Below, in pieces: positions 17,884-59,130 of a DNA stretch of 64,000 nucleotides (its first letter is position 1; every line of letters begins with the position of its first letter). Below the pieces are notes generated by a model, which did not search any database, was not told the origin of the DNA, and saw only the letters and a program-made list of their open reading frames with translations. The position numbers and the translations under genes are program-made. Source of the stretch: Kiloniellaceae bacterium. Lineage in GTDB: Bacteria > Pseudomonadota > Alphaproteobacteria > Kiloniellales > J153. The stretch is from NCBI GenBank assembly GCA_021776135.1, contig JAJFGL010000031.1:4703-68702 (forward strand), given 5' to 3'.

Positions 17884-17919
17884 TTGGCCGAAACCGGGCT
17901 TTGTCGGGATACTGCCGGG

Positions 17920-18903
<984 letters not shown>

Positions 18904-42866: not shown

Positions 42867-44140
42867 TGTTCCGGCGTCCCGATACCGGGCGGCCGCCCGC
42901 CGAAGCGGGCGCGGGCTGTTTTCGCCAAGAGCGCCATCACCTCGGCCGTGACCTCGCACCCCTGTTCAGCCAGAACATGGCCTTCGGCTCTTTGGCGAAC
43001 GAATTGGCGGACGAAAGAGGGTATCCGCGCCAGCCATTCCTCCGCTTCCGGGGTCCAACGCAGACTGCCGGCATCCTTGTTCAGGGGCTCGATAACCGGA
43101 CCGCCTTGCGGCTCGTAGGCGCAGAGGAAATCCTCACCCATGAGCTGGCCGTCGCGGGCCAGGGGCCGGGCCCGGCAGCCACCGCAAATCTTTGAGTACT
43201 CGCAAGACCCGCAGCGTCCCTCCAGGACCGGCTTTCGCAACGCCTGGAACTGCGGCGCATCGCGCCAAATTTCGGCGATGCCCTGCGCGCGGATGGAGCC
43301 CACCTCCTGTTCCATGTAAGGGCAGGCCGTGACTCCGCCCAAGGGCGTGATCCGGCAATAGCGGGTCCCGGCCAGGCAGCCGCCGGCTTCGTAGCCGTGA
43401 GCGGCGGTGATCGGCCAGTCCGGGTCCAATTCCCAGGCCATGCGCTTGAAGTGCGGCGCGCACTTGGCCCGGATCATGATGTCCGTCTCCTGCTTGGCCG
43501 CTAGCGTCAGCTTGCGCATGACCCGGTCGTAGGATTGCGCGGAGATGTTGGTCATCTGTTCGCCGCGGCCGGTGCAAACCAGGAAGAAGACGTTGAGAAC
43601 GAAGGCCCCGGCGTCGCGCGCGAAAGCGATCATATCGTCGAGTTCGTGGGCGTTGTCGTCGGTGACCGAGAAATGAAGCTGAAAGCGTAAATCGTTGCGG
43701 CGGCAGGAATCAATGCCGGCCATGGCCAGTTCCCAGGAACCGGGCAGCCCGCGAAAGGCGTCGTGGGCTGCGGCGTCGAGGGAATCCAGGCTGATCCCCA
43801 CGCCTTGCGCCCCGGCCTCCTTCAAGGCCAGGACCCGCCGGTCGTTGAGGCCCATGCCGTTGGTGCCGATCACCGCCATGAGCCCCAAGCCCGTGGCATG
43901 GGCGACAAGTTCCGCGAGGTCGGCCCGCAACAGCGGCTCGCCGCCGGTAAAGACGACCATGATCTCATCGCTAAGCGCGGCGATGTCGTCCAGCAGCGCC
44001 GTCACTTCCGCCGTGGACAGTTCACCTGAGGCGTCGCTTTCCCGGGTGCCGGCGTCGAGATAGCAGTGCGCGCAGTTCAGGTTGCACCGGCGGGTCAGGT
44101 TCAGGGCGATCAGGAAAGGCGGGGGGAGTGTATCTGCCAT
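42863..44140 (-). CDS. Radical SAM/SPASM-domain enzyme (AhbD/NirJ-like) with C-terminal PCP_red-like domain
   Basis: CNLNCAHCY (CX3CX2C). C-terminal Cys clusters (GGCLAGTRYC, ACPYM, CGSCEYSKICGGCRA). Tail LRWTPEAEEWLARIPSFVRQFVRQRAEGHV resembles the ChlB/BchB C-terminal domain. Start set at MADTLPPPF. Confidence 0.8.
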   Translation of the reverse strand: MADTLPPPFLIALNLTRRCNLNCAHCYLDAGTRESDASGELSTAEVTALLDDIAALSDEIMVVFTGGEPLLRADLAELVAHATGLGLMAVIGTNGMGLNDRRVLALKEAGAQGVGISLDSLDAAAHDAFRGLPGSWELAMAGIDSCRRNDLRFQLHFSVTDDNAHELDDMIAFARDAGAFVLNVFFLVCTGRGEQMTNISAQSYDRVMRKLTLAAKQETDIMIRAKCAPHFKRMAWELDPDWPITAAHGYEAGGCLAGTRYCRITPLGGVTACPYMEQEVGSIRAQGIAEIWRDAPQFQALRKPVLEGRCGSCEYSKICGGCRARPLARDGQLMGEDFLCAYEPQGGPVIEPLNKDAGSLRWTPEAEEWLARIPSFVRQFVRQRAEGHVLAEQGCEVTAEVMALLAKTARARFGGRPPGIGTPEQ

Positions 44141-44153
44141 GGATTGCCCCCGG

Positions 44154-45803: not shown

Positions 45804-45873
45804 TTCAAGGCTTTCATTCTATTTGCCCCCCTATGGGGCCTTAGTATGGGGCCCTAGAAGCGGCGGCGGCGCC

Positions 45874-45887
45874 TTGATCTCCCTCAA
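45874..45887. promoter_or_regulatory. FNR/FixK-type box, one mismatch (TTGATCTCCCTCAA)
   Basis: Fits TTGA-N6-TCAA. Centre lies about 77 nt upstream of the USP gene ATG (45803) and overlaps the stop of the small membrane ORF. Confidence 0.4.
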
Positions 45888-46090
45888 GCGCGGTTGCGCC
45901 GGATCGCCCCGATCATGCAAAGCAACAGCCCGGCCGCGATGAGCATGGCGTGAAAGGGGACGATCTCGAGACCGCCGCGCCACGACAGCATGGTGTTGAG
46001 CCACCCCAGGATAATCAGGATAACGCCGAAGATACGAAAGACGGCGCCCCGGCTTCTATCAGGTAACGATTCCTGTGCCTCATCCCTCAT
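45884..46090 (-). CDS. Small two-TM membrane protein (68 aa) coupled to the cytochrome c/EB_dh gene
   Basis: ATGA start/stop overlap with the upstream gene. Two hydrophobic helices (VFRIFGVILIILGWL; AMLIAAGLLLCMIGAI). Confidence 0.5.
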   Translation of the reverse strand: MRDEAQESLPDRSRGAVFRIFGVILIILGWLNTMLSWRGGLEIVPFHAMLIAAGLLLCMIGAIRRNRA

Positions 46091-47622
46091 GGTGCCCGAG
46101 TCCTCGCGCTACGTCCCCACCAAATCAGAATCGCGCCGAGCAAAAGCGTAACGGCGATGGCGGCTATGATGGGCCGGGCACTAGCCGAGGGTTTCAGCAG
46201 CAGCCAGTACCAGGTGGTCATGGCGTGATGCGATCCGGCTTCGCCGTTGGAGCCGTCCCAGGCGAAAAAGGCGATGGGAATGAAACGCCCTTCCTCGAAC
46301 TGCAAGTCCTGGTCCGCGGCCCCGGTTATCAGTGGCCGGGTCATGACCACGCGCCAGGTGCCGGCCTTGTAGCTGCTCTTGGCCGTGAGGCCGCCGGCAT
46401 CGCGCATTTGTTGCTCGGCTATTCCCATGGCGTCGATCATGGCGACGCTTTCCGCTTCCTCCGTGGTGCCGCCGGACCAGCGCCAGAGATTGACCGGCTT
46501 GGCCGCGTCGCCCATGAGGAAATAGGGTTTCTCCATGCCGGCGGGGAGCGTCACCGGGAACTGCACGGCGACGGCGTCTTCGGTCAGGTCTTCGTCGGCG
46601 ATACTCAGGGCCTTAGGGTCGCCGGGGATGCTCTTCGTCCGGTCGTCCCATTCCAGATGCAGGCCGATTTTATCGCCGTTATAAAGGGCGCGGACGCTGA
46701 GCGTGTCGTTGGCGGCGGTGAAGAACCGCGTTTCGCCGACGATCTGCGGAACCATGAAAAAGGTTGAGGGCGGCGCCGCATCCCAGGCGGGATCTTCGGG
46801 CGAGGAGGGAATCTCCCCCTCCAGGCGCGCCGCCTGAATGACCGTGTTCGCGGGCCGCACGACCTTTTCCGTCTTGGCCAGGGAGGTCACGTAGTTGGCG
46901 ACGTGCCAGCGTTCCTCGATGCTCAACTTCTTCTTGCTCTTGGGGTCGGCGAAGGAGGGCATCTGTGTGGTCGGGATGCCCGCGGTGATTCGGTTGAAGA
47001 CGTCCTTGGGGTCGTTGCTGGCGCGGAAGGTCCAGGGCTTGGTTAGGTTCCGGGGCCAGGTTCGGTCGCCGTTGTCGTTTTTCAGCTTCTTGATGGCGTC
47101 GCCCTTGCCCTCGGCGCCATGGCATTCCGAACAGCGGTCGTCGGCGTGAAAGAGCGTCTTGCCGGCGGCGATGCTTTCCGCCGAGGTCGCGACCTGGGCA
47201 CCGTAATCCACCTGAGTTTCAGGTTCGCCCTCCAATTCCGCGAAGGTTTTGATATAGGCGATGACGTCCCACATGTCCTGTTCGTTCAGCAGGCCGCTCC
47301 AGCCCGGCATGGCGGTGCCGGGCATGCCGTCGCGGACCATGCGGAGCAGGTCGCCGTCGTTGGGCAAGTCCTCGTCGAAGGGCGTGGACTTGAACTTGTA
47401 GAGGCCGAAGGTGAAATCGCGCGGCGGCGGGTTCAGGCGCTCGGCGGCCGGGCCGAGGCCGTCGCCGTCCTCGCCGTGGCACTGCAGGCAGCGCTTCGCG
47501 TAGATGGCCTCGCCATTTTCCTCGTCGCCCGGTGCGGCCATGGCCGGGCCCAGATAAAGCGCCAGAAATCCGGCGGCAAAGACCGGCGGGAGGTATTTTT
47601 TCAGCCCGCCGCCCGCCATCAT
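46087..47622 (-). CDS. Diheme cytochrome c fused to EB_dh (DMSO-reductase type II heme-b subunit-like) domain with C-terminal TM anchor (module 1)
   Basis: Signal peptide. CLQCH and CSECH. C-terminal half has the EB_dh pattern (VRALYNGDKIGLHLEWDD..., AVQFPV..., FFAWDGSNGE). Terminal helix IIAAIAVTLLLGAILIWW. Confidence 0.8.
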   Translation of the reverse strand: MMAGGGLKKYLPPVFAAGFLALYLGPAMAAPGDEENGEAIYAKRCLQCHGEDGDGLGPAAERLNPPPRDFTFGLYKFKSTPFDEDLPNDGDLLRMVRDGMPGTAMPGWSGLLNEQDMWDVIAYIKTFAELEGEPETQVDYGAQVATSAESIAAGKTLFHADDRCSECHGAEGKGDAIKKLKNDNGDRTWPRNLTKPWTFRASNDPKDVFNRITAGIPTTQMPSFADPKSKKKLSIEERWHVANYVTSLAKTEKVVRPANTVIQAARLEGEIPSSPEDPAWDAAPPSTFFMVPQIVGETRFFTAANDTLSVRALYNGDKIGLHLEWDDRTKSIPGDPKALSIADEDLTEDAVAVQFPVTLPAGMEKPYFLMGDAAKPVNLWRWSGGTTEEAESVAMIDAMGIAEQQMRDAGGLTAKSSYKAGTWRVVMTRPLITGAADQDLQFEEGRFIPIAFFAWDGSNGEAGSHHAMTTWYWLLLKPSASARPIIAAIAVTLLLGAILIWWGRSARTRAP

Positions 47623-48386
47623 TCGTTCCCCCAGGTTCGCGGCGAATGGCCCGTGTAATCATAGAGGAACAGGATCGTTTTCCAGATCTCGTCTTCCTTA
47701 AGGAAATTCTGCCAGACCGGCATGGAGGAAATCCAAGGCGCCGCCTCCTTCGGCAAGCCTGGGCCGCCGGTGGCAATGCGCCAGAACAAATAGGATTCCT
47801 GAAGCTGGGCGATGGTGCCCACGTCCTGGAAATTGAGCGGCGTCGGGTTCAGGCCGGCCGCATAGGGGCCGTTGCCGTCGAGCTTGTCGCCGTGGCAGTA
47901 CTGGCAGTTCTGGATATAGACGGCGGCGCCTTCCTCAACCAATTCGCGGAATTGCTCCGGGTCTTCCTTCTCCAGCTTCCTGAAGGGGTTTTCCAGCTTC
48001 AGGAGATTGACCCGCTTACCGTAAATCTTGGCCGTGGTCGGCGGCGCCGGGTGGATGGTGCGCAACTCCAACGGCGCTTCGAAGCTGGGCTGCATCTGCA
48101 CGTAGGTGCCGGCCCCCGCCGCCAGCGGGACGATAACGAAAACGATGTTGCGCCACACGCGCTTGCTCGGATCCTCGACCAGGGCCTTGATGGGGGCGAC
48201 CAACTCGCGCGTCCCTTCCTCGTCGTAGGTAAAGACCATGAACACCCCGGCGGTGACGAAAAACATGTACATGACCAGCAGGCTGGACGGGATCACCGCC
48301 TCGAGGATCACGTCGAAGACGACGATAAAACCGAAATAGACCCCGGCCAGGACCAGCACGGCCTGCAGCAACTTGGGAATTCTCAT
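47619..48386 (-). CDS. Membrane-anchored monoheme cytochrome c (module 1)
   Basis: Hydrophobic N-terminal helices, one CQYCH motif. C-terminal WRIATGGPGLPKEAAPWISSMPVW is shared with its module-2 paralog. Confidence 0.8.
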   Translation of the reverse strand: MRIPKLLQAVLVLAGVYFGFIVVFDVILEAVIPSSLLVMYMFFVTAGVFMVFTYDEEGTRELVAPIKALVEDPSKRVWRNIVFVIVPLAAGAGTYVQMQPSFEAPLELRTIHPAPPTTAKIYGKRVNLLKLENPFRKLEKEDPEQFRELVEEGAAVYIQNCQYCHGDKLDGNGPYAAGLNPTPLNFQDVGTIAQLQESYLFWRIATGGPGLPKEAAPWISSMPVWQNFLKEDEIWKTILFLYDYTGHSPRTWGNE

Positions 48387-48396
48387 TGCCGCCTCC

Positions 48397-49218
48397 TCAC
48401 TTCAAACCGGCCAGGTAATCCAGCAGGATTTCCAGTTCCGCGACGTACATGGCCTCGCCCATATCCTCCGGCATCATGTCTTCTTCGAAGCCCTCGGCGA
48501 TATCGGCGTTGGGGTCCAGGATCGCGCGGCGGAGGTAGTCCCGGTCGCGGCTGGCGCCGATCCGGGTCAGGTCGGGCCCGACCTCGCCGCCTTCGCCGCC
48601 GATCGCGTGACAGGCGTCGCAGGTGAAAAGGGCCATGAGTTCCTGGGGGTCGGCGATGGCTTCGCGCGCTTCGCTCTCGTCTTCTTCGTCTTCTTCGTCT
48701 TCTTGCGCGCCTATGTCCTGAGGTACCTCGACCGTGACCTCGGCGCCGCTGGAATCCTGGAGATAGGCGACAACGGCCGCGACCTCGGCCTCGGACATGC
48801 CGATACCGCCGCTGGCGACATTCGGCATGGGGCTTTCGGTATCGTTGGTGCCTTTCTTGCCGAAACCGATGACCACGAAGGCCGAAGGATCGATCAGCGA
48901 CTCGGTCAGGTATTCCTCGACAGTTGCGGCCTCGCCCTCGTAGCGGGGATCTTCCAGGCGCCCTGCCGCGACCTCGCCGATCGCCGCCAACTCGGGCGCC
49001 CGGCCCAGGGAATTATGACAAAGGGTGCAGGTGCCCTTGCCGTTGAAGAGCCTCTCGCCCAGGGCGATAAAGCCGTCCAGGGTCATGGACCCGAGGTCGA
49101 GCTTTTCTTCCTTGGGCGGCGGCGCCGGTTCGATCTGCGGTATGCCGTAATTGGAATAGCCGGCGAAAAAGCCGATGGTCAGCAGGGTAAAGACAACCAC
49201 GGTGAGGAACTGGCGCAT
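48397..49218 (-). CDS. Membrane-anchored diheme cytochrome c (module 1)
   Basis: N-terminal TM helix, CTLCH and CDACH motifs. Acidic linker QEDEEDEEDESEA. Start shares 1 nt with the bd-like gene stop. Confidence 0.8.
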   Translation of the reverse strand: MRQFLTVVVFTLLTIGFFAGYSNYGIPQIEPAPPPKEEKLDLGSMTLDGFIALGERLFNGKGTCTLCHNSLGRAPELAAIGEVAAGRLEDPRYEGEAATVEEYLTESLIDPSAFVVIGFGKKGTNDTESPMPNVASGGIGMSEAEVAAVVAYLQDSSGAEVTVEVPQDIGAQEDEEDEEDESEAREAIADPQELMALFTCDACHAIGGEGGEVGPDLTRIGASRDRDYLRRAILDPNADIAEGFEEDMMPEDMGEAMYVAELEILLDYLAGLK

Positions 49219-51011
49219 TAGTCCTTCCAGTACCCGGCCGGCAGCGTCTTATCGCTACTGACCTGGGCGATCCAGAAGACGAAAATCACCATGGCCATGA
49301 AAATGATCGCGGCCACGGAGACCACATTGGCGGCATAGCCCAGGGTCGGCGTGAAGGCGTCCGGCGAGGCGTCGCGCATGATGTCGAGAACGTGCCAATG
49401 CTGGCGGATGCCGGAGCGGATGTAGCCCATCAGCCCCATGAGCCAGGTGAAGGCGACGGCGAGCAGGAACAAGGCGTACTGGGCCCGCTCCGGTATCCGC
49501 CCCCAATGCAGCGGCCCGACCTCCTTGCCGCCCCGGTAGATAAAGGAATCCAGGGCGATGCTGCCGGCGATGACAACCAAGGTGGTCAAGACCTGCGGGA
49601 TCGAGGCCGCGACCTTGTAAACCGTGTTGGTGAAGTAGCCGTGATAGATGCCCAGGAATAGGATGTTGGCGATGCCGGCCGCATAAAGCGCCACCTGTAT
49701 GGCGTTGCCGGCCTTGACCCAGGGCACGGTGGCGACCTTGTTGGCGCGCCGGTAGAACATGAAACTCAGCGCCGTGAAAATAATCATCACGTTCACCGCC
49801 GTGTTCTTGGCCGGCATGATGCCCAGGGGCCCGAGAATCTTGTGGTGCGGCCCGCCCAGGGCCTTCAACTCCTCGTTGGTCAGCACCAGGGTATGGGGCG
49901 TGAACCAGACCAGGAAGGCGCCGACCAGGACGATGGCGATGTATTTGATGTACTTGGTGTAGCGCTTGGCGCCGTCGCTGCGCCCCATGCCGCACCAGAG
50001 GTAATAGTTGGCCGAGAGGAACAGGGTGCCGATCAGCACCGCCTGGATGATGAACAGCCAGGCGAAGATGCCGCCCATGAGGGTGATCCCCATCTGCTGG
50101 CTGTAGGCGTAAATCTCGGCCGCCAGGTAGTACCCGGCGAAGGGCAGGGGCAACAGCGCGCAAATGGCGATGAAGTTGGCGTTGTACCCCATCCAGTCGT
50201 AGTGCGCGCGTTCCCGCGGCCCCGAGGCGGTCAGGAACTTGAAGGCCGCGTAGGCGCCGACGATGGAGCCGCCATAAGCGATGTTGGCGACGAAACGATG
50301 GATGTTGATGGGGTTCCAGAGGAAATTATGGATGGCGGCCCAGGCGTCGCCGCTGAAAACCCCGGCGCCATCGACACCCGCCGGGCTCATCATGAAGGTC
50401 AGCCAGGCATTGGCCAGCAACATGATCGTCGTGCCAACGGCATTGAGCACCAGGCCCAAGGTCAGATGCACCCACTTCCTGAAACCGCCCTGCAGCCAGT
50501 GCCAGCCGTAGTAATAAATGTATAGCGCCGCGCTCTCGGCGAAGAACAGCAGCGCGTAGTAGAACATGCTCTCGCGGAAAATGGTCGAGAGATAGGAAAA
50601 CAGGTGCGGATAAAACAGGATCAAGGAGAACAACAACATCCCACCCAGAATCGCGGTTAGGGAATAGGCGGTGATGGAAACCTTGATGAACTCGTAGGCC
50701 ATGTCGTCGTAGCGCTTGTCGCGGGTGCGCATGCCGATGGCTTCGATGATGAAAACGAAAATCGGCACGGCCAGGACGAAGGCCGCGAACCAGAGGTGAA
50801 GCTGGGCGAATATCCAGACCGCGACCCGGCTGTTGACGCCGGCGATGCTCGGGTAATCGGCGGCGCTGAGCTTGGGCGCCGGGGGATAAAGCCTGGCCGC
50901 CGCCTCCCCGTGCTCGGCGGCGAGGGCGCCCAACTGCTCGACGCCGGTAAAAGTAAGCGCCGCCGCGGCAAGGGCGAGCCCGATCCCGAATTTAGGGAGA
51001 GGCCGGTTCAT
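49218..51011 (-). CDS. Cytochrome bd ubiquinol oxidase subunit-I-like polytopic membrane protein (bd-like, module 1)
   Basis: 597 aa, many TM helices. CydA-like N-terminal helix with conserved His (FAQLHLWFAAFVLAVPIF). Segments YYYGW, MMSPAGVD, AHYDWMGY, LPLPFAGYY. No CydB gene adjacent. Confidence 0.75.
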   Translation of the reverse strand: MNRPLPKFGIGLALAAAALTFTGVEQLGALAAEHGEAAARLYPPAPKLSAADYPSIAGVNSRVAVWIFAQLHLWFAAFVLAVPIFVFIIEAIGMRTRDKRYDDMAYEFIKVSITAYSLTAILGGMLLFSLILFYPHLFSYLSTIFRESMFYYALLFFAESAALYIYYYGWHWLQGGFRKWVHLTLGLVLNAVGTTIMLLANAWLTFMMSPAGVDGAGVFSGDAWAAIHNFLWNPINIHRFVANIAYGGSIVGAYAAFKFLTASGPRERAHYDWMGYNANFIAICALLPLPFAGYYLAAEIYAYSQQMGITLMGGIFAWLFIIQAVLIGTLFLSANYYLWCGMGRSDGAKRYTKYIKYIAIVLVGAFLVWFTPHTLVLTNEELKALGGPHHKILGPLGIMPAKNTAVNVMIIFTALSFMFYRRANKVATVPWVKAGNAIQVALYAAGIANILFLGIYHGYFTNTVYKVAASIPQVLTTLVVIAGSIALDSFIYRGGKEVGPLHWGRIPERAQYALFLLAVAFTWLMGLMGYIRSGIRQHWHVLDIMRDASPDAFTPTLGYAANVVSVAAIIFMAMVIFVFWIAQVSSDKTLPAGYWKD

Positions 51012-51033
51012 GTTTTTCTCAAGGCCTCATCCA

Positions 51034-51150
51034 TCACTTATGAAATATCAGGCTCAGGCCCTGCATGTTCATGACCGCCACGTCGAGCAGCAGGAAGATC
51101 GCGGCGAAGGCGATCAGGGCCGCCGCGAAGGGAACTAAATAGCCATTCAT
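51034..51150 (-). CDS. Unannotated 38-aa single-TM peptide upstream of bd-like gene 1
   Basis: Hand translation: MNGYLVPFAAALIAFAAIFLLLDVAVMNMQGLSLIFHK. GGAGAA-like RBS upstream. Ends 22 nt before the bd-like ATG. Below the ORF-track size cutoff. Confidence 0.4.
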   Translation of the reverse strand: MNGYLVPFAAALIAFAAIFLLLDVAVMNMQGLSLIFHK

Positions 51151-51174
51151 GCCCGTTCTTCTCCCCCGCGTCCC

Positions 51175-51285
51175 TTAGGCCCGCACGAACCACCAGAAGA
51201 AAATCGCCAGCAGGGCCAGCACAACCATGAACAAAGCCGGCCCGGCCCAGCCAGCGCGTTCCTCTTCACCTTTTTGTTCAGTCAT
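51175..51285 (-). CDS. Unannotated 36-aa single-TM peptide
   Basis: Hand translation: MTEQKGEEERAGWAGPALFMVVLALLAIFFWWFVRA. AGGTG 7 nt upstream. The ATG may lie upstream of the start site of the putative FNR-dependent promoter. Confidence 0.3.
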   Translation of the reverse strand: MTEQKGEEERAGWAGPALFMVVLALLAIFFWWFVRA

Positions 51286-51313
51286 ATTTCAACACCTGGG
51301 AAACCCATCCAAC

Positions 51314-51327
51314 TTGATCGGGATCAA
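51314..51327. promoter_or_regulatory. Perfect FNR/CRP-family box TTGATCGGGATCAA
   Basis: Exact match to TTGAT-N4-ATCAA, in the only sizeable gap (185 nt) inside the cytochrome cluster. Minus-strand -10-like TGAAAT sits 22 nt away; plus-strand TAAGAT sits 23 nt away. Confidence 0.55.
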
Positions 51328-51362
51328 TGGACGGAGAGATTGCCTTGGGATAAGATTTGACC

Positions 51363-51464
51363 ATGCCGTCGCCCAAAAAACGCTTCGCCGACGCCGTTAT
51401 CCTCTCCGGCATGGCCGTGAACGCCGTGGTCATCGTCTTGATCCTCTATTTCTACGTCTTCTAG
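51363..51464 (+). CDS. Possible leaderless 33-aa TM peptide on the opposite strand (speculative)
   Basis: Hand translation: MPSPKKRFADAVILSGMAVNAVVIVLILYFYVF. The ATG sits about 42 nt from the FNR-box centre, where a class II promoter would start transcription. No RBS. Confidence 0.2.
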   Translation: MPSPKKRFADAVILSGMAVNAVVIVLILYFYVF

Positions 51465-51470
51465 GCAGCC

Positions 51471-51839
51471 CTATCCCTGTTTACCCTCGCACTGGCAGAG
51501 TGTGCGCAGGTGCCTGATCAGGCCATCGACCTGCTCGGCGGTCAGGGTTTTGCCCCAGGGCGGCATCATGGGCGATTTACTGACCGAGGGGCCGCCGTCC
51601 AGGATGACATTCTTCAAATCCGCGTCGGAAAGCTTGTTCATTTCCGCCGCGTTGGTGAAGTTACGCGGGCTGACGGGGAAATCCTTGGTCACGTTGGGAC
51701 CGTCGCCCTTGCCGGTCAGGCCGTGGCACTGGGCGCAATAGAACTTGAACACCTTTTCGGTCTCCGACGCCGTGGCCGGTGCCAGGGTCAGGAGAAAAAC
51801 GAACGCCGCGAAGGTTGCGATTGTCATTAGCTTTTTCAT
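51471..51839 (-). CDS. Soluble periplasmic monoheme cytochrome c
   Basis: Signal peptide MKKLMTIATFAAFVFLLTLAPATA, one CAQCH motif and a distal Met region (SPMMPPWG). Confidence 0.8.
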   Translation of the reverse strand: MKKLMTIATFAAFVFLLTLAPATASETEKVFKFYCAQCHGLTGKGDGPNVTKDFPVSPRNFTNAAEMNKLSDADLKNVILDGGPSVSKSPMMPPWGKTLTAEQVDGLIRHLRTLCQCEGKQG

Positions 51840-51853
51840 GGTCGGTCTCCCCC

Positions 51854-52516
51854 CTATTTCTTCGGCTTGAAGCTGGCCACATGGCGGGCGACGTTGGTCA
51901 TGTCCTTGTCGCTAAGAAGACCGGTGAAAACCGGCATCATCTTCACCGGCTTGAAGACCTTGGGTTTTTGCAGGTAGGCGAGAATCCAATCCGGGTTGAG
52001 GCGCAGGCCGGCCTCGACCAGGGAGGGGCCGCTGCGTCCACCGGAGATTTTCTTCTTGCGTCCCACGTACTGGTGGCAACCGCTGCACGGCATCTTCTTG
52101 ATGAAGATCTGGCGGCCCTTGGGGTTCTTCTTGGGCTTGACCTTGCCGGCTTCCACCTCATCGGTCGTGAGGGTCATGAGAAAGTCCGTGACCGCGGCCA
52201 CATCGGCGCCGTCCAGCTTCGGATGATCGCCGGGGTTTTCTTCCGTGAGGCTGTTGAACTTCATGGGCCGGATGGGTTTGGGATCGGCCAGCCAGCCAGC
52301 CAACCAGTCCTTCTGGAATTTCGATCCGGCGTACCAGAGTTCCGGCCCCTTCTTGGCCAACTGGTCGTCGATGGTCTTTTCCCTGGCCGGCCCGTCGGTG
52401 TAATGGCAGGCGACGCACCCCTTGGCCTCGAAGACATCCCCGCCGGCGGCCGAACCCGGTGACGCCGCGGCGGCCAGGAAGGCCGCGCTCAAAACCGCTG
52501 TCAGCATGTGTTTCAT
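51854..52516 (-). CDS. Soluble periplasmic diheme cytochrome c
   Basis: Signal peptide. CVACH and CSGCH motifs. Confidence 0.8.
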   Translation of the reverse strand: MKHMLTAVLSAAFLAAAASPGSAAGGDVFEAKGCVACHYTDGPAREKTIDDQLAKKGPELWYAGSKFQKDWLAGWLADPKPIRPMKFNSLTEENPGDHPKLDGADVAAVTDFLMTLTTDEVEAGKVKPKKNPKGRQIFIKKMPCSGCHQYVGRKKKISGGRSGPSLVEAGLRLNPDWILAYLQKPKVFKPVKMMPVFTGLLSDKDMTNVARHVASFKPKK

Positions 52517-52551
52517 GACTTTCTCTCCTCCAATTTCTTTTACCGGCGGCT

Positions 52552-54207
52552 TCAGGCGTCCACCTCCGCCGGCGTTTCTTCTTTTTCCGCCTTACGCATC
52601 AGCCAAATCCCCAGGCCGCCCGCGACCAGGAAGGCCAGGACGCTGTAGACATAAACGCTGACCGGCGTCGGCGCCTCGATGAAGACGTAGTGCCAGGTGC
52701 TGAGGCCCATGATCAGGCCGTGTTCGCCGTTGGAGCCGTCCCAGGCATTGACGGACATGGGGGTGAACAGGCCTTTCGCGAACTGCACGTCGTTCTTGTC
52801 GCCGGTATTCAGCGGCCGCTTCATGACCACGCTCCAGCGGCCCTGGTCCCACTTCGCCTGGCCGGCGATTTGCTGGCCGCCTTCGGCTTGGCGCTTGATC
52901 GGCTGTTTCCAGCCGCGCGCGTTGCCTTCCTCCGTGCCCCGCTCCCCGGCCGCGTCCAGGTCCGCCTTCCAGACCCAGAGGTGAACCTGGTCGGAGGAGG
53001 AGCCACGGTAGAAGTGCGGTTTTTTGGTGCCCTGTGTCGGCTTCACCGCGAATTGAAGCGCGATGGAATCGCGGAAGGTTTCCAGGGCCCGCGGCATCAT
53101 GCCGTTGGCTTCCACGTAGGAACTGAAGGATCCCACCTTGGCGATCTCTATGGGGTCGAACTCCCGCGCCTCGTCGTGCACGATGTCCTTGAAGGGATCG
53201 TCCCAGGTCAGGCGGAAGGAGATGTCCGTGTCGTTGGACAAGGCTTGCACGGTCACCATCTCGATGCTCGGGTTTTGCCAGCGCGGGGCCGCGATCACCT
53301 GCCCGGCCAAGCGCATGTCCATGGGTTCGGCCGCGTCCCAGGCGTCGTCGTCCGGGCTTTCCGGCAGGTCCGCCGTGACCGCCTTGACCTGCAAGGCCTG
53401 GTGGCTGGTCAGTTCATGCTGCAAGGATTTGATGTAACCGGCCAGATACCAGCGGTCTTCCTCGTTCAGGGACTTGATGAAGGACGGCATGGGCGTGCCG
53501 CTGATGCCGCTGGTGAAGCGCATGTAGATGTCTTCGACCTCGCCCCCCGCCTTGATCTTCCAGGGGTGGGTGACGTTGCGGATGCGGATCGGGAAACCCC
53601 AGTCGTCCTTGCGGAACTCCTTGTTGCCGTCGCCGCGGCCGAGCTTGCCGTGGCAACTCCAGCATTTGGCCTTTTCGAACACCTCCTTGCCCTTGGCGAT
53701 GGTTTCGGGCGTGACGGGCGGGCGATTGGCGGGCAGGGCGATGACCTTGCCGGTAGCCACGGGATCGAGGTCCGGGTCGTCGAATTCCTGGGCGAAGGTC
53801 TTGATGTAGCCGATGACCGCCCAGCGTTCGTCCTCGCTCAGGCCGCTCTTGATCAGGTCGTTGTCGAAGGCTTGCATGGCGGTGCCCGGTAAGCCCCGGC
53901 TGACGGTGCGGAACAGATCCTCGTTGGTGGGCAGCTCACCGCTTTGGGTGGTGCGGAACTTGAAGGTGCCGAGGGTGAAGTCGCGGGGCCTGGGGTCCAG
54001 GTACTTGGCCGCCGGTCCCTCGCCATCGCCCAGAAGCCCGTGGCAAAAACTGCAACGCCGGAAATAAACGCCGCGGCCCTGCTCCAGATGATCGTCCGTG
54101 GCCTCGGGCATGGGCTTGCTCGGAACGTTGGCGGCCAGGGCCGGGGCCGGGGCCGACACCCAGGCGGCGGCGATAACGGCGGCGAGTAGTTTACATGGCG
54201 CGCGCAT
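52552..54207 (-). CDS. Diheme cytochrome c fused to EB_dh heme-b domain with C-terminal TM anchor (module 2)
   Basis: Start set at Met 54207 (ATGA overlap). Signal peptide. CSFCH and CWSCH. EB_dh pattern (ISFRLTWDD..., ALQFAV..., VNAWDGSNGE). Terminal helix VYSVLAFLVAGGLGIWL. Paralog of 46087-47622. Confidence 0.8.
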   Translation of the reverse strand: MRAPCKLLAAVIAAAWVSAPAPALAANVPSKPMPEATDDHLEQGRGVYFRRCSFCHGLLGDGEGPAAKYLDPRPRDFTLGTFKFRTTQSGELPTNEDLFRTVSRGLPGTAMQAFDNDLIKSGLSEDERWAVIGYIKTFAQEFDDPDLDPVATGKVIALPANRPPVTPETIAKGKEVFEKAKCWSCHGKLGRGDGNKEFRKDDWGFPIRIRNVTHPWKIKAGGEVEDIYMRFTSGISGTPMPSFIKSLNEEDRWYLAGYIKSLQHELTSHQALQVKAVTADLPESPDDDAWDAAEPMDMRLAGQVIAAPRWQNPSIEMVTVQALSNDTDISFRLTWDDPFKDIVHDEAREFDPIEIAKVGSFSSYVEANGMMPRALETFRDSIALQFAVKPTQGTKKPHFYRGSSSDQVHLWVWKADLDAAGERGTEEGNARGWKQPIKRQAEGGQQIAGQAKWDQGRWSVVMKRPLNTGDKNDVQFAKGLFTPMSVNAWDGSNGEHGLIMGLSTWHYVFIEAPTPVSVYVYSVLAFLVAGGLGIWLMRKAEKEETPAEVDA

Positions 54208-55172
54208 CAGTGGCTCTCCGGAATACGCGGGGTTTTCTGGGCCAGGTCGTACTCGGCCAGAATGATCTTCCAGCGCTCTTCCTCGGTCAGGCTGAGCTTC
54301 CATTCGGGCATGGCCGAATCCCAGGGCGTCGCTTCCGTGGGCAGGCCGGGGCCGCCATTGGTAACCCGCCAGAAGGTATAGCCCTCGACGATGGTCTCGA
54401 TGGTGCCGTTGTCGGTGAAATTGATCGGCCTGAGCTTGAAGCCGTCGGCCATGGGGCCGTCGCCGGCGACGCTGTCGCCGTGGCAGGCCCGGCAGTTCAT
54501 GGCGTAGAGGGCCCGGCCCTCGAACAGATTTTTCTCCAGCAGCGCCGCGCGCGCGGTTTCCCTATCCACCGAGCCGGATTCCAGCTGCGCCAGAAACTTC
54601 TTCACCGGCTCCACGGCGAAGAACTCCAGCACATGGTCCGGCTCCACTTCATTCATCCAGTTCTCCACGTCCTCTTGCACCTGGGGAATAAACTCGATCT
54701 CGTTGGCTTCGGCCTGCTCGATGAAGGCCGTGACCTGGGCCTCGCCCGGATTGGCGATGGGGTTTTTCTTGTCCTCGAAGCTCTTGGGGAAGTTCGACGA
54801 GGGATGCTGGATGCGCAGCGAGGAGGGCACCTCCACCTTGGGCACCACCACCTCGTAAACCTGCCAGGAGACCACTACCGGCACCGCCAAGAGAACGGCG
54901 GCGCGCGCAATCTTGCTATAGCCGCCACGCAGAAGCTTCTTGACCGGGCGGAGGAAGTCGTCGAGCCCCTCCTCGGAGAAGGTCACGAACAGGAACAGCG
55001 CCACGACCGTCAACACCATGTAGAAGAACATCAAGGTGCCGGGCACCGGCAGCGGGAAGGGCAGCGTCGTCACTTCCCGGGAAACCGCGGGGATGCCCCA
55101 CTTCACCAGGGCATAGACAACCAGCAGTATCAGAACCACCGTGAAGAAGCTGCCAAGCCGCAATTTTTTCAT
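54207..55172 (-). CDS. Membrane-anchored monoheme cytochrome c (module 2)
   Basis: N-terminal TM helices, one CRACH motif. WRVTNGGPGLPTEATPWDSAMPEW is paralogous to module 1. Confidence 0.8.
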   Translation of the reverse strand: MKKLRLGSFFTVVLILLVVYALVKWGIPAVSREVTTLPFPLPVPGTLMFFYMVLTVVALFLFVTFSEEGLDDFLRPVKKLLRGGYSKIARAAVLLAVPVVVSWQVYEVVVPKVEVPSSLRIQHPSSNFPKSFEDKKNPIANPGEAQVTAFIEQAEANEIEFIPQVQEDVENWMNEVEPDHVLEFFAVEPVKKFLAQLESGSVDRETARAALLEKNLFEGRALYAMNCRACHGDSVAGDGPMADGFKLRPINFTDNGTIETIVEGYTFWRVTNGGPGLPTEATPWDSAMPEWKLSLTEEERWKIILAEYDLAQKTPRIPESH

Positions 55173-55185
55173 GATCGCCCGCCCA

Positions 55186-56172
55186 TCACTGCGCCTCTGG
55201 TTTCGGCTTTTGCAACATCAGGTAAGACAGGATGTCCTGGTAGTCCTTGACCGTCATGGCCTCGGACAGGTCGTCGGGCATGACGCTCTTGGTGTCGTCG
55301 ATCCTGATTTCCTTGATGTCCGCCTTCTCCAGGGTGACCACGTCGCCGGTGGCCGTGGTGATATCGATCTCCCCGGCCTCGTCGCGGGTTTTCAGGCCGA
55401 TAGTCTGGCGGCCTTCCTGGTTGACGGCGACGTAAGTCTCGAAGCCCTTGGTCAGGGCTTTCGCCGGTTGCAAAATGGCTTCAGAGATGAACTTCAGCCC
55501 CTTGCCGGCGATGCCGGAAAGTTCCGGGCCGATCTCACCGCCCTCGCCGTTCAGGATGTGACATTCCGAGCAGTTGTCCTCGTAGACGATGGCGCCTTCG
55601 CCCGGATCGCCGCCGCCGGCGGCGGCCGCCGCGGAAATCTTGGCATAGAAGGCTTCCGTCAATTCGCCCGGCGCGGTGTCGATGGCTTCCATGTCCAGAT
55701 CGCCGCCCAGGGACATGAGATAGGCGGCCACCGCCTTGATCTCCGTGAGGCTCAAGGAAATCGGCGGCGCGTAGACCACGGCCATCTCGTTCTTGTAGCC
55801 CTTGACCACATAGGCGCCGGGGCTGGCCAGGCTTTCGACGAGGTAATCGACGGCGGTGAACTCGGTTCCTTCCTTTTCCGAACGCTCCTTGGCCCGTTCC
55901 TCGGCCCGCGCGCCCATGGCCAGGGGAAACTTTTCCCCGAATTGGCCGTGGTTCGGGCCGCGCACGGCGCTGCCTTGACCGCCGACGCTATGACAGGTGA
56001 AGCAACGCCCCTTGCCCCAGTAGATGGTCTCGCCGCCTTCCGGGCTGACATCGACGGCGGCGCTGGTTCTTTGTCCGCCCCCGGTAAGTTCGGTAATGGA
56101 ATATCCGATCCAGAGGTAGGTGCCCAAGACGATCAGCAGAAAAGCAAACAGGCGGGCAAGGGTCGCGGCCAT
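55186..56172 (-). CDS. Membrane-anchored diheme cytochrome c (module 2)
   Basis: N-terminal TM helix. CFTCH and CSECH motifs. Paralog of 48397-49218. Confidence 0.8.
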   Translation of the reverse strand: MAATLARLFAFLLIVLGTYLWIGYSITELTGGGQRTSAAVDVSPEGGETIYWGKGRCFTCHSVGGQGSAVRGPNHGQFGEKFPLAMGARAEERAKERSEKEGTEFTAVDYLVESLASPGAYVVKGYKNEMAVVYAPPISLSLTEIKAVAAYLMSLGGDLDMEAIDTAPGELTEAFYAKISAAAAAGGGDPGEGAIVYEDNCSECHILNGEGGEIGPELSGIAGKGLKFISEAILQPAKALTKGFETYVAVNQEGRQTIGLKTRDEAGEIDITTATGDVVTLEKADIKEIRIDDTKSVMPDDLSEAMTVKDYQDILSYLMLQKPKPEAQ

Positions 56173-56176
56173 GCCC

Positions 56177-58327
56177 TCAGTCCTCCTTCTTGCCCGTAGC
56201 GGCGCCGCCGAGCCAGAACATGAAGGCGCACCCGATCATGAACAGAAGAACGGCGGCGCCGACCTGCTGGGTCATGACGAAATTACTTGGCGTGTAGGCC
56301 CATTCCGAGGTGTCGCGCATGATCCCGAAGATGTGCCAATCGCCGCGCAGGCCGGAACGGATAAAGCCCATGAGGCCCATGTTCATGGTGATGATGAAGG
56401 TCAGCAGCAACAACGCGTACTGAGACCGCACGGTCATCTTGCCCCATTGCAGCGGGCCCAGGGACTTGGCGCGCTTGAACAGGAAGACGTCGATGACCGA
56501 AACCAGAATCAGACAGCTTATGAGTTGCAGGAATTGCGCGACCGCCACGTTGCGCAGCACCGGCGAGGCCTTCTCCATGACCACGAAGCCCCAGACGCCC
56601 AGGAACAGGGTCACGTTGAAGGCGGTGACGGCCAGATAGAGCACCTGCCCCAGCTTGCCCCGGTCCATGAGCGCCAGGACGATGGCGGCGGCGCCGGCCA
56701 GGCACTCGAAGACCAGCACATAGCCGATCATATGGATGAATTCGGCCCGGTCCGCCGGCAGGTCGAGCGCGGCCGGATCCAGGGTCAGCATGGTCACCGC
56801 GTACTGCGCCACCAGGGCGATGGCGGCGGCGCCGATGACTATGATGGTAATGCGCGCGCCCTTGCCCTGATCGCGGATCGAGACCGCGTCCATCATGTTG
56901 CCCCGGCGATACAGCAGGAAGCTGAAGAAGGTCGCCAGGATGATCAAATTCACGACCGCGTTCTTGGCCGGCATCAGGCCCAGGAACTTGAGCATGGGAT
57001 GATACTGGCTGCCGCCCATTTCACCGACCTCCAGGCTGCTCAGGGGCAGGTTATGGGGGGTCAGCCAAATGGCGAAGGAGACGATCAGCGCCAGCAGGAT
57101 GTACTTGATGAACTTGTAATACCGCTGGGCGCCGGGGATGCGGGTCATGCCGCTCCACAGGTAGTAGTTGGAGATAACGAACAGAGAGCCCACCAGCATG
57201 GCCTGGATGATGAAGGTCCAGGAAAAGTCGCCGCCCATCATGTTGTTGCCCATGACCGCGCTGGTCGAATAAACCTCGCGCCCCAGGTAATAGCCGGCGA
57301 AGGGCAGCGGGATCAGCGCCGCGATGGCGACGAAGTTGGCGATATAGCCCATCCAGTCGTAATGAGCCTTTTCCTGCGGCGTCTTGGCGGCGATGAATTT
57401 GACGGCGGCGTAGGAACCGGCGACCAGGCCGCCGAAGGCCAGATTGCCGAGCATGCGGTGAATGGCGATCGGCGTGGCCAGGACGTTTTCGAAAGCCTGC
57501 CAGACGGTGCCGACAAGAACGCCGTCCGCGTCGACGCCGGCCGGGCTCATCATGTAACCGGCCCAGGAGTTGGCCAGTTGCATGATCGCGGTGCCGAAGA
57601 CGTTGAGAGTAATGCCGATGAAGATGTGGGTCGATTTCAGATCGCGGATCATCCAGAACCCGATGGCCGTGGGCGTGATGTAAAGAAGCAGGATGAACCA
57701 GCGGGTATCGACCCGCATGTCGGGACCGATGAAGCCGAGGCCGAAGGCCAGGCCGAAGCCGGCCATGAGCACGGCGAGCGCCTTGAACAGCCATTGCAGT
57801 TTGACCGGGAATTTGCGTTCGCTCTTCAGCCAATTCCAGCCGTAATAATACATATACAGCGCGAAGGTCTCGCCGAAGAACAGCAGTGCGTACATGAACA
57901 TGACATCTTTGAAGATGCCGGCCATGTGGCCCATGAAGGTCGGGTAGAGGGTAAACAGCGCGAAGGCCAGAAGCCCGCCCAGAGCGGCGGTGGTCGCGTA
58001 GGCGATGCTCAAAAGACTGGTGAACTCATAGGCCAGTTTGTCGAACTTGGGGTCTTTGTTGTTCCAGCCGACGATCTCGATAATCACCGCGAAGAGCGGC
58101 ACGCCGAGAACGAAGGCGGCGAAGAACAAGTGCATCTGGGCGATGAACCAGATCAGGCGCCGGGAATCGATGCCCAGGAACTGGCGGTAGACGTTCTCCT
58201 CCAGCGCCAGGGCCGGGGTCGCGGCAAGGACCAGCCCGACCGCGACCAGAACCGCCAAGCCCAGGCTTGCGGTTCGGGAGATTCCCCACCCGGCGCTAAG
58301 GTTGTTCGTCGTTCGACCCTGCGTCAT
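56177..58327 (-). CDS. Cytochrome bd subunit-I-like polytopic membrane protein (bd-like, module 2; about 70-aa extra two-helix insertion)
   Basis: 716 aa. Same conserved blocks as module 1 (IAQMHLFFAAFVLGVPLF, YYYGW, MMSPAGVD, AHYDWMGY, LPLPFAGYY), plus an inserted hydrophobic segment FPVKLQWLFKAL...GFWMIRDLKS. Confidence 0.75.
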   Translation of the reverse strand: MTQGRTTNNLSAGWGISRTASLGLAVLVAVGLVLAATPALALEENVYRQFLGIDSRRLIWFIAQMHLFFAAFVLGVPLFAVIIEIVGWNNKDPKFDKLAYEFTSLLSIAYATTAALGGLLAFALFTLYPTFMGHMAGIFKDVMFMYALLFFGETFALYMYYYGWNWLKSERKFPVKLQWLFKALAVLMAGFGLAFGLGFIGPDMRVDTRWFILLLYITPTAIGFWMIRDLKSTHIFIGITLNVFGTAIMQLANSWAGYMMSPAGVDADGVLVGTVWQAFENVLATPIAIHRMLGNLAFGGLVAGSYAAVKFIAAKTPQEKAHYDWMGYIANFVAIAALIPLPFAGYYLGREVYSTSAVMGNNMMGGDFSWTFIIQAMLVGSLFVISNYYLWSGMTRIPGAQRYYKFIKYILLALIVSFAIWLTPHNLPLSSLEVGEMGGSQYHPMLKFLGLMPAKNAVVNLIILATFFSFLLYRRGNMMDAVSIRDQGKGARITIIVIGAAAIALVAQYAVTMLTLDPAALDLPADRAEFIHMIGYVLVFECLAGAAAIVLALMDRGKLGQVLYLAVTAFNVTLFLGVWGFVVMEKASPVLRNVAVAQFLQLISCLILVSVIDVFLFKRAKSLGPLQWGKMTVRSQYALLLLTFIITMNMGLMGFIRSGLRGDWHIFGIMRDTSEWAYTPSNFVMTQQVGAAVLLFMIGCAFMFWLGGAATGKKED

Positions 58328-58344: not shown

Positions 58345-59130
58345 CTACTCGCTATCGGAGAAGGTAAAGTCGATCTCCTGCGCGCCCTTGGCGGCGACCG
58401 TGATCTTGGTTTTCTTGACCCCGTAGCGCGGATGCCAGGCCTTCAGCGTGTACTTGCCCGGCGGCAGGTTATCGATGGCATAGGAGCCGTCGTCGCCGAC
58501 CACCACGGCATAGGGATGAACCGGCGCCATGATGAAGCCGAACATGAAGTTGTGGGCCTCGCAGTTGATGCCGATGTAGGACGAGCGGCGCGGCTTGATC
58601 TTGTCGGTGATGTCGCCGGGATCCGGCTGCCCGAAGTTGAAGAGCGTCTTCTTGACCACGCGGCCCTTCTCGACCCCGATCAGCTCACGGGCGTTGATGT
58701 TGTGCAGCACCCCGGCGTCGCTGTTGCGGATGACGAAGGGGCCGGGCCTGACGACCTGGGCCCAGGGCCGGAAACGGCAACCCTTCTGATTGACCAGATA
58801 GGTGCCCATCTCGGGCTTCGGCCAGGCTTTGCCTTCCTCAATCTTGGAAATGAAAACGAAAACGCCGCGCAAGGCGCCGTCCTTGACGTCAACCCAGGCG
58901 ACTTCGCGCTCGCCCTCGCCGCAAACATCGACGTTTTTGGTAATCAGGATTTTCTCGATTGCGTCGGCGGGAACCGCGCCCTCGAAACTAATCTTGCCGG
59001 TGACCGTGCCGCCATCGGCGACGTCCATTTCTTTGTACTTGTCCTTTTTGGCCGCCTCTACCGGCGCCGCTAGCGCCAGGGAGGCAAAAGCAGCCAGCAC
59101 AAGGCTGACGATAGGTAATTTCGATGTCAT
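58345..59130 (-). CDS. Periplasmic cupredoxin-like protein (putative type 1 Cu site) with beta-sandwich (CarboxypepD_reg-like) C-terminal domain
   Basis: Signal peptide. Candidate ligands H in GVLHNI and C-x2-H-x2-M in INCEAHNFM (amicyanin-like spacing). C-terminal DDGSYAIDNLPPGKYTLKAWHP. Confidence 0.55.
   Translation of the reverse strand: MTSKLPIVSLVLAAFASLALAAPVEAAKKDKYKEMDVADGGTVTGKISFEGAVPADAIEKILITKNVDVCGEGEREVAWVDVKDGALRGVFVFISKIEEGKAWPKPEMGTYLVNQKGCRFRPWAQVVRPGPFVIRNSDAGVLHNINARELIGVEKGRVVKKTLFNFGQPDPGDITDKIKPRRSSYIGINCEAHNFMFGFIMAPVHPYAVVVGDDGSYAIDNLPPGKYTLKAWHPRYGVKKTKITVAAKGAQEIDFTFSDSE

Follow-up and report, generated by a model that had tools for sequence, protein, structure and literature searches.

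CydA homologues of the OR-N family share only the first four helices with CydA, and the quinol site is absent from them (Murali et al. 2021). The OR-N2 type is marked by the residues H99, Y183, E190, Y197, Y199, H213, H269, M430/N434, S563 and W569 (Murali et al. 2021, Suppl. Table 6), and clusters that combine a bd-like oxidase, cytochromes c and an alternative NxrC have been described in Nitrospinae, Nitrospirae and anammox bacteria. Here we analysed a 64,000-nucleotide stretch from a Kiloniellaceae bacterium (assembly GCA_021776135.1, contig JAJFGL010000031.1, positions 4,703 to 68,702 of the forward strand; hereafter, the window), in which two complete four-gene modules with bd-like proteins stand in tandem, downstream of a molybdoenzyme gene resembling those of arsenite oxidase (Aio) and iodate reductase (Idr). 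The two modules would encode paralogous, specialised, cytochrome-c-fed bd-like reductase complexes of the OR-N2 branch, complementary to each other and accessory to iodate or micro-oxic respiration, a reading that we hold to be somewhat better than an even bet. Both the four-gene module and paired bd-like paralogues were known before; what sets this locus apart is a tandem of non-degenerate OR-N2-like operons tied to an iodate-reductase-type island.

Synteny with a Rieske gene and two cytochrome c peroxidase (CCP) genes is the published criterion that separates idrABP1P2 from arsenite oxidase. An IdrA of 99.4 kDa was identified in the marine bacterium Roseovarius azorensis, and E. coli expressing idrABP1P2 from the genome of an oxygen-minimum-zone alphaproteobacterium reduced iodate (Natl Sci Rev 2026). 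The genes around idr were described as poorly conserved in one published account. Bd-like oxidases are not mentioned in those papers on iodate respiration that we could search, and our literature searches returned no paper linking them with idr genes.

Organization and paralogy of the two modules

According to the list of open reading frames (ORFs), both modules lie on the minus strand and encode four proteins each in identical order. They are named here module B (58327-52552) and module A (51011-46087, which was module 1 of an earlier note on this DNA), and each runs from a CydA-like membrane protein (BdB, BdA) through a dihaem cytochrome c (B1, A1) and a membrane-anchored monohaem cytochrome c (B2, A2) to a dihaem cytochrome c fused to an EB_dh domain, with a C-terminal anchor (B3, A3). 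The gene junctions inside each module are tight or overlapping. Pfam searches detected Cyt_bd_oxida_I (PF01654, cut-off 26.2 bits) in both CydA-like proteins, Cytochrom_C or Cytochrome_CBB3 domains with 2, 1 and 2 CXXCH motifs along each module, and EB_dh (cut-off 33.3 bits) in the last gene of both (scores in Table 1).

The four A/B pairs were reciprocal best hits within the cluster, by a wide margin, and aligned over essentially their full length, beyond the surroundings of the CXXCH motifs (BLASTP; BdA and BdB, 42% identity, E 6e-114; A1 and B1, 32%, E 1e-20; A2 and B2, 30%, E 5e-39; A3 and B3, 35%, E 1e-89). Homology confined to the CXXCH motifs is ruled out by these full-length alignments (E down to 1e-114). 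At the DNA level, similarity between the modules was found only as patches of 56-184 nt with 71-80% identity, located in the most conserved coding blocks. The earlier note had described tandem four-gene modules of the same order and architecture, with no repeat at the nucleotide level and with shared peptide blocks in the four protein pairs (all present), and the ORF coordinates, Pfam domains and alignments bear this description out. The single hydrophobic insertion of about 70 aa that it had ascribed to BdB turned out to be two insertions, of ~58 aa and ~60-70 aa, within a total length difference of 119 aa. Each of them reads as two transmembrane helices (~4 extra, read by eye from the alignment and not with a predictor), and both are kept in all aligned BdB orthologues.

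In a neighbour-joining tree of 50%-identity cluster representatives, calculated without support values, BdA and BdB fell in separate clades, each together with other representatives, and the duplication is therefore judged to be old, as had been proposed in the earlier note. As far as the sequences tell, a single ancient event duplicated the module in its entirety, all four genes and not cydA alone, and so gave rise to the pair.

Assignment of the CydA-like proteins

The alignments to PF01654 were confined to the N-terminal 118-239 of 418 profile positions in BdA and BdB, and in a PDB profile search the similarity of BdA to solved CydA chains ended after transmembrane helix 4 (TM4; 5doq_A, E 2.8e-10). 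An AlphaFold2 model of BdA (predicted local distance difference test, pLDDT, 65 overall and 80-90 for approximately residues 40-240) contained 13-14 helices, and its ten best PDB matches were all CydA (Foldseek, E 1.7e-9 to 1.3e-6, target TM-score 0.5-0.6). The equivalents of E. coli His19, Glu107, His126 and His186 in BdA are H72, E159, H182 and H238, respectively. The His19-equivalent ligand in TM1 (H72 in BdA, H66 in BdB) was invariant in 95 sequences, and M399/N403, S533 and W539 of BdA were also conserved in both paralogue families.

The full OR-N2 signature was found in BdA (at a constant offset, given as 4 residues), in BdB and in the orthologues. The number of helices (13-14 predicted for BdA and ~4 more for BdB, the insertions being counted by eye) compares with 14 published for OR-N2, and the operon content described for this type, multiple cytochromes c plus an EbdC homologue, is found in both modules. 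In PDB profile searches A3 matched 6h5l_B (E 1e-41), 2ivf_C (E 1.6e-13) and 7b04_C, which is NxrC (E 1.6e-07). Based on signature residues and operon content, both copies are assigned to the OR-N2 type of the cytochrome bd superfamily, an identity that the earlier note had missed, and because both of these match, the four-gene module would be of a known, biochemically uncharacterised kind. A pairing of OR-N1 with OR-N2 is disfavoured by the signature residues, which make both copies OR-N2-like.

The OR-N2/NIDE0901-like clusters of Nitrospira, Nitrospina and anammox bacteria show the same four-helix similarity to CydA, the missing quinol site and the signature residues, with ~14 helices, near the 13-14 predicted for BdA; their operons, too, combine a membrane-anchored EbdC/NxrC-like subunit with several cytochromes c. 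The locus analysed here differs from them in having two complete modules in tandem, in Proteobacteria, and also in the extra helices of BdB, a Met-less EB_dh domain and three conserved mini-proteins. Its haem c complement is di, mono and di-EB_dh, whereas that of the published nitrite-oxidiser cluster is di, tri and NxrC, and its neighbour is an AioA/IdrA-like enzyme with a Rieske_3 domain instead of nitrite oxidoreductase (NXR).

With canonical CydAB(X) (E. coli 6RKO/6RX4, Geobacillus 5DOQ) the proteins share the fold of the N-terminal half and the equivalents of His19, Glu107, His126 and His186, and the mini-proteins are reminiscent of the single-helix subunits CydX and CydS. The differences comprise the replacement of Glu99 by Tyr and of Glu445 by Ser (both matching the published OR-N2 row), 5-9 additional helices, c-type cytochromes as presumed donors, and the lack of a quinol site and of cydB. 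No quinol-binding region (Q-loop, TM6-TM7) was detectable in BdA or BdB, for which Pfam and PDB matches were N-terminal only, and no cydB was found adjacent to the bd-like genes, whose neighbours encode cytochromes c. A canonical quinol-oxidizing bd enzyme is ruled out by the N-terminal-only match to CydA, the Tyr and Ser replacements and the missing cydB. Oxidases of the cbb3 type (CcoNOQP) resemble the locus in their anchored mono- and dihaem cytochromes c, which match the CcoP and FixO models, in the FNR-type box and in a small single-helix subunit. The catalytic subunit here is, in contrast, CydA-like, and Pfam searches found a haem-copper subunit I (CcoN) domain in no gene of the cluster, which rules out a cbb3 oxidase.

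Distribution of the tandem pair

Relatives were detectable in large numbers (more than 6,900 for BdA and more than 5,900 for BdB), the closest of them, 75-93% identical, belonging mostly to marine alpha- and gammaproteobacterial metagenome-assembled genomes (MAGs), with many BdA and BdB relatives on shared contigs. A scan of one genome per species yielded 460 stretches encoding BdB relatives, of which 80 loci were analysed. Gene order was established by tblastn with all window proteins and counted in the 52 loci that reached at least 8 kb downstream. Orthologues were 78-93% identical to BdA and, in the 80 loci, 67-90% identical to BdB.

Of these 52 loci, 46 had the order BdB-B1-B2-B3-c220-c122-BdA-A1-A2-A3; they represent Alpha-, Gamma- and Betaproteobacteria (by record Kiloniellaceae, Rhodospirillales, Rhodobacteraceae, Hyphomicrobiales, Arenicellales, Acidiferrobacteraceae, Halieaceae and Burkholderiales, among others), and in loci with the tandem pair three mini-proteins stand between c122 and BdA. 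The six exceptions were MAGs labelled Deltaproteobacteria, Nitrospirae or Nitrosomonadales, which carried module B only or a rearranged version. Searches begun from A-type proteins again retrieved both modules together, including in the closed genome of Pseudopelagicola sp. nBUS_20. In Proteobacteria of marine and groundwater origin the pair is inherited as a fixed unit of ~14 genes, 10 of them for cytochromes and bd-like proteins, three for the mini-proteins and one for a small protein with two helices. A recent or lineage-specific duplication, which the earlier note had raised as something for phylogeny to decide, is ruled out by the conservation of the arrangement across three proteobacterial classes and by the separate paralogue clades.

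Many carrier genomes (L002, L007, L026, L027, L028 and L034, among others) bear names containing ETNP, Arabian, SI0xx or BS150m, which we take, from the isolate names, to point to oxygen-deficient waters. Genes for SCO1/SenC copper chaperones follow module A in three loci found through the A-type proteins P0096 and P0114 (L084, L085, L086), a hint of a copper cofactor somewhere in the system; L084 and L085 additionally carry a Nitr_red_assoc gene downstream of module A, together with genes for a molybdate ABC transporter. Two loci with module B alone (L063, Deltaproteobacteria label, 17688-19797; L080, Nitrospirae, 12691-14719) encode a multicopper oxidase and a relative (30% identical) of the 261-aa protein that precedes BdB in the window; from these, it seems that one and the same module has been put to use with various periplasmic redox enzymes.

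Maintenance and divergence of the copies

Comparison with three relatives gave ratios of non-synonymous to synonymous substitution (dN/dS) of 0.03-0.29 for every gene of both modules (0.03-0.07 for A2), so both copies are under purifying selection. The numbers of CXXCH motifs were invariant in orthologues except for three single deviating sequences; both motifs of B1, for instance, were kept in 71 of 72 orthologues. An alignment of 52 A-type and 43 B-type bd-like sequences contained 194 conserved columns in which the two families have the same residue. All candidate ligand residues are among these columns, as are, in BdA/BdB numbering, H72/66, E159/153, H182/234, H238/290, H270/322, H373/425, H390/443, M399/452 and H540/665. 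The claim of the earlier note that both copies are intact agrees with these results, and a decaying copy is ruled out by the dN/dS values together with the conserved CXXCH motifs and ligand residues.

In the same alignment, 78 columns were fixed differently between A-type and B-type sequences. The EB_dh domains have also diverged. Met370 of A3 aligns with the Met that serves as haem-b ligand in ethylbenzene dehydrogenase gamma (2ivf_C), and it is kept in most readable A3 orthologues. At this position Arg was found in 67 of 67 module-B sequences (66 orthologues and the window copy), and the EB_dh domain of module B may be haem-free or carry haem with a different ligand. The fixed substitutions, the extra helices, the change from Met to Arg, and the FNR box and mini-proteins that accompany module A only are consistent with specialisation of the two copies.

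Duplicated CydA paralogues are likewise kept together in the CydAA' or 'a-b' pairs (qOR4a/4b, OR-N3-5 a/b and the proposed OR-N1+OR-N2). By analogy with the OR-N1/OR-N2 CydAA' proposed for Nitrospira and Nitrospina, both CydA-like proteins and their cytochromes could form one heteromeric supercomplex, an arrangement to which we give very little probability. It would account for the near-obligate co-occurrence of the two modules, and CydAA' complexes of paired bd-like paralogues have been proposed in the literature. The b partner of the described 'a/b' pairs has, however, usually lost the proton-channel Glu and ligands, whereas neither paralogue is degenerate here (E159/E153 and the ligands are kept), and the whole operon has been duplicated, giving each paralogue a full cytochrome set of its own. 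Moreover, the two CydA-like genes are not adjacent: six genes lie between them, in this lineage with a divergent gene and a separate regulatory box, and module B also exists alone.

The segment between the modules

The genes between the modules are as conserved as the modules themselves: c220 was present in 59 loci, always with 2 CXXCH motifs, and c122 in 58. The stretch from c122 to BdA contains three mini-ORFs (35-38 aa) that each encode a single hydrophobic helix and whose peptides are conserved in 53-56 loci. The 35-aa mini-protein is encoded on the opposite strand in alphaproteobacterial loci and co-directionally with the operon in gamma- and betaproteobacterial ones, which makes it a real, inverted gene. 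Module A was said in the earlier note to be the only one preceded by an FNR box and mini-peptides; this stands, with the amendment that the mini-ORFs are three, not two, and that one of them is on the opposite strand.

The FNR-type box at 51314-51327 is the only perfect match in the window and has its centre midway between two divergent start codons (51285 and 51357). A perfect box is present between c122 and BdA in at least nine close relatives; a search of the loci for perfect matches detected the box there only in a subset of the Alphaproteobacteria-like ones. Five further FNR-like boxes with one mismatch were observed in the window (15968, 29972, 32371, 33763 and 45874), which with the perfect one makes six, where shuffled sequence gives an expectation of 1.07; the box at 45874-45887 is situated immediately downstream of the gene for a 68-aa protein and upstream of a Usp gene. 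A sigma-70 promoter scan of 45700-52700 found nothing, and terminator-like hits fell within coding sequence.

These elements bear on the possibility that the modules encode isoenzymes of one reaction for different O2 regimes, with module A as an FNR-induced high-affinity form and module B constitutive or Idr-induced. Such a division is suggested by the perfect box, which precedes only the unit of mini-proteins and module A and is conserved in close relatives, by catalytic-site candidate residues identical in both copies, and by the ability of module B to occur alone. It appears unlikely to us, given the strict co-inheritance in fixed order across three proteobacterial classes (46/52 loci), the restriction of the perfect box to part of the Alphaproteobacteria-like loci, and the four extra helices, the lost EB_dh Met and the one-sided mini-proteins, which point to different partners or roles beyond affinity. 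The functional specialisation put forward in the earlier note is, accordingly, compatible with the fixed differences, yet co-inheritance fits complementary roles at least as well as the isoforms that it had in mind. We rank complementary partners first, on the grounds that the modules are inherited jointly in a fixed order and yet differ systematically in structure.

Linkage to an Idr-like cluster

A gene for an AioA/IdrA-like molybdoenzyme, cut by the window end, lies upstream of module B. Source databases name this enzyme arsenite oxidase, and P0391, a protein 100% identical to it, has a full length of 890 aa; the score of the molybdoenzyme against TIGR02693 was 327 bits, below the arsenite oxidase cut-off of 359. 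An IdrA-like gene was found upstream of BdB in 50 of the 54 loci with enough sequence, and in two of the four exceptions it is separated from BdB by haem-biosynthesis genes. In the closest relative (L001, IdrA-like protein 94% identical) and in a JGI contig, two dihaem CCPs and a Rieske protein with a twin-arginine translocation (TAT) signal precede the molybdoenzyme, and a gammaproteobacterial variant (L041) has genes of matching size at these places (judged from gene sizes only, with no domain searches). The order in the relatives is P1-P2-B-A, followed by a HEAT-repeat gene. This linkage, like the conservation of the pair and of c220 and c122, had been missed in the earlier note. The relatives thus have the AioA-like enzyme, Rieske protein and two dihaem CCPs of the published idrABP1P2 islands (Yamazaki 2020; Reyes-Umana 2021; Natl Sci Rev 2026), from which they differ in the P1-P2-B-A order, the HEAT-repeat gene and the attached block of ~14 genes with two bd-like modules. 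As more than 90% of loci have the double module beside a cluster of the iodate-reductase type, we propose for it an accessory role in iodate or micro-oxic respiration.

The HEAT/PBS-lyase-like protein of 757 aa is a constant fifth gene of the Idr-like unit and follows the molybdoenzyme in L083, L087 and L088 too. The 261-aa protein encoded between it and BdB has 64 orthologues in related loci; H143 and a C190-x2-H193-x2-M196 motif, which is type-1-copper-like, showed a conservation of 95% or more across 65 sequences, the window copy being one of them. A PDB profile search found no cupredoxin fold for it, and a single-sequence model reached a pLDDT of only 33.

The molybdoenzyme is periplasmic and has no anchor of its own, and haem-rich membrane proteins are encoded directly downstream, including an EB_dh subunit homologous to NxrC (7b04_C). 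This arrangement could suit a non-oxidase electron-entry device, passing electrons from quinol through c haems to the Idr-like reductase (cf. Alternative Complex III or bc), or terminal oxidases serving an arsenite- or iodide-oxidising molybdoenzyme, the latter being in line with the database name and with the parallel of NXR and a bd-like oxidase proposed in nitrite oxidisers. We regard both as very unlikely. An entry device is at odds with the retained O2-site residues and with a quinol-binding region that is not detectable, only TM1-4 matching CydA and OR-N being defined without a quinol site. Substrate oxidation is opposed by the TIGR02693 score, by the company of two CCPs, which is the published Idr criterion, and by the reduction of iodate in E. 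coli by idrABP1P2 of an alphaproteobacterium from an oxygen-minimum zone.

Proposed function and points against it

Each complex comprises a CydA-like haem protein that keeps the four-helix O2-reduction core and is devoid of the quinol-binding part, three membrane-anchored periplasmic cytochromes holding five c haems, and an EbdC/NxrC-like domain. The function that we infer for each complex is as follows. Electrons would pass from periplasmic donors to the c haems (and the EB_dh haem b in module A) and then to the CydA-like haems, where O2 or a related small oxidant would be reduced. Putative donors are c220, c122 and possibly a candidate copper protein encoded upstream. Module B would be co-transcribed with the upstream Idr-like genes, and module A, with its three CydX-sized mini-proteins, would be separately controlled through the FNR-type box and induced at low O2.

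Several observations weigh against this proposal. Regarding the enzyme, no OR-N enzyme has been purified and O2 reduction itself is a hypothesis in the literature; the equivalents of Glu99 and Glu445 are Tyr152 and Ser533, so that the active site differs from that of proven bd oxidases, and the C-terminal half of the BdA model is of low confidence. With respect to the Idr linkage, the window's own CCP and Rieske positions lie beyond the window end, these partner genes being seen only in relatives; small intergenic gaps are the sole basis for placing module B in one transcript with the Idr-like genes; and three genomes (Roseibium album and a Rhodovibrionaceae isolate among them) have Idr-like units of the order CCP-CCP-Rieske-MoA-HEAT with no bd-like module. 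Finally, module B occurs alone in some Deltaproteobacteria and Nitrospirae loci, and L063 and L080, the two of these that were studied in detail, have a multicopper oxidase neighbour and no Idr-like gene, which argues that module B does not strictly need module A or Idr.

A more specific possibility, which we consider improbable, is that the double module and the marine Idr-type molybdoenzyme are dedicated to each other and form a self-contained 'iodate respirasome', or, more radically, that the whole system works in reverse as an iodide-oxidising, O2-reducing chain. In the respirasome, one complex could, for example, exchange electrons with the molybdoenzyme through the ligand-less EB_dh domain as a docking domain, and the other, FNR-controlled complex would reduce O2, H2O2 or hypoiodite arising from iodate reduction. 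The reverse chain would be analogous to NXR with a bd-like oxidase.

Features of the locus

The coordinates of the features are collected in Table 1. The most likely start codon of B3, at 54207, overlaps the stop codon of the preceding gene in a TGATG and gives a protein of 551 aa (583 aa from 54303). The 68-aa protein downstream of module A has a 53% identical orthologue in L081/L082, and an ORF of 70-81 aa occupies the same place in L081, L084 and L086.

Table 1. Position, strand and supporting evidence of the features of the double module and of the adjoining Idr-like genes (window coordinates).
Feature	Position	Strand	Evidence or remark
AioA/IdrA-like molybdopterin oxidoreductase, cut by window end	61508..64000	-	Rieske_3 + Molybdopterin domains
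HEAT-repeat protein, 757 aa, fifth gene of Idr-like unit	59146..61419	-	Pfam
Secreted 261-aa protein, CarboxypepD_reg-like C-terminus, directly upstream of BdB	58345..59130	-	Pfam
BdB, CydA-like (putative OR-N2-type) membrane protein, 716 aa	56177..58327	-	PF01654 41.8 bits
B1, dihaem cytochrome c, N-terminal membrane anchor, 328 aa	55186..56172	-	two CXXCH; reciprocal best hit of A1
B2, monohaem cytochrome c, 321 aa, three N-terminal hydrophobic segments (by eye)	54207..55172	-	PF13442
B3, dihaem cytochrome c + EB_dh + C-terminal anchor	52552..54207	-	EB_dh 74 bits; listed ORF start 54303
c220, secreted dihaem cytochrome c, C-terminal half FixO-like	51854..52516	-	Pfam
c122, secreted monohaem cytochrome c	51471..51839	-	Pfam
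Mini-protein, 35 aa, one transmembrane helix	51357..51464	+	peptide conserved in 56 loci
Perfect FNR/Crp-type box TTGATCGGGATCAA	51314..51327	.	sequence match
Mini-protein, 36 aa, one transmembrane helix (WAGPALF...FFWWF)	51175..51285	-	conserved in 53 loci
Mini-protein, 38 aa, one transmembrane helix (PF..LD..MNxQGLSLIF)	51034..51150	-	conserved in 55 loci
BdA, CydA-like (putative OR-N2-type) membrane protein, 597 aa, 13-14 helices	49218..51011	-	PF01654 61.4 bits
A1, dihaem cytochrome c, N-terminal anchor, 273 aa	48397..49218	-	Pfam; BLASTP; reciprocal best hit of B1
A2, membrane-anchored monohaem cytochrome c, 255 aa	47619..48386	-	Pfam; BLASTP; reciprocal best hit of B2
A3, dihaem cytochrome c (Kustc0457-like) + EB_dh haem-b domain + C-terminal anchor, 511 aa	46087..47622	-	EB_dh 92 bits; PDB profile matches
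Small protein, 68 aa, reads as two transmembrane helices	45884..46090	-	ORF; start overlaps A3 stop codon

Haem-related genes accompany the cluster in the window (41478-45803, minus strand) and in L027, L044, L076 and L081. The window set encodes a protein with Usp and two PCP_red domains, a HemY-type oxidase and a radical SAM protein that is AhbD/NirJ2-like and ends in a PCP_red tail; in L081 there is a ferrochelatase instead. These genes may serve to modify haem or to supply it specifically and independently of O2. Elsewhere the window contains ordinary metabolic genes unrelated to the cluster (TRAP transporter, Na+-decarboxylase, photolyase, NhaA and carbonic anhydrase).

Significance

In Nitrospira, Nitrospina and many uncultured bacteria, the role of terminal oxidase is assumed to fall to bd-like oxidases of the OR-N family; no member has been characterised, and the native hosts are difficult to cultivate. 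A complete OR-N2 operon present as a conserved pair in Proteobacteria, with Pseudopelagicola sp. nBUS_20 as a cultured carrier, offers a more tractable system, in which the two copies differ in defined and testable ways (helices, haem ligand, mini-subunits and FNR box). Published models of iodate respiration leave open the electron route to Idr and the fate of reactive oxygen and iodine intermediates, both of which a dedicated oxidase-like partner makes directly testable. A respirasome, if it exists, would supply the step consuming oxygen species that those models postulate, and the reverse chain, should it operate instead, would be a candidate for the ocean's unidentified biological oxidation of iodide to iodate.

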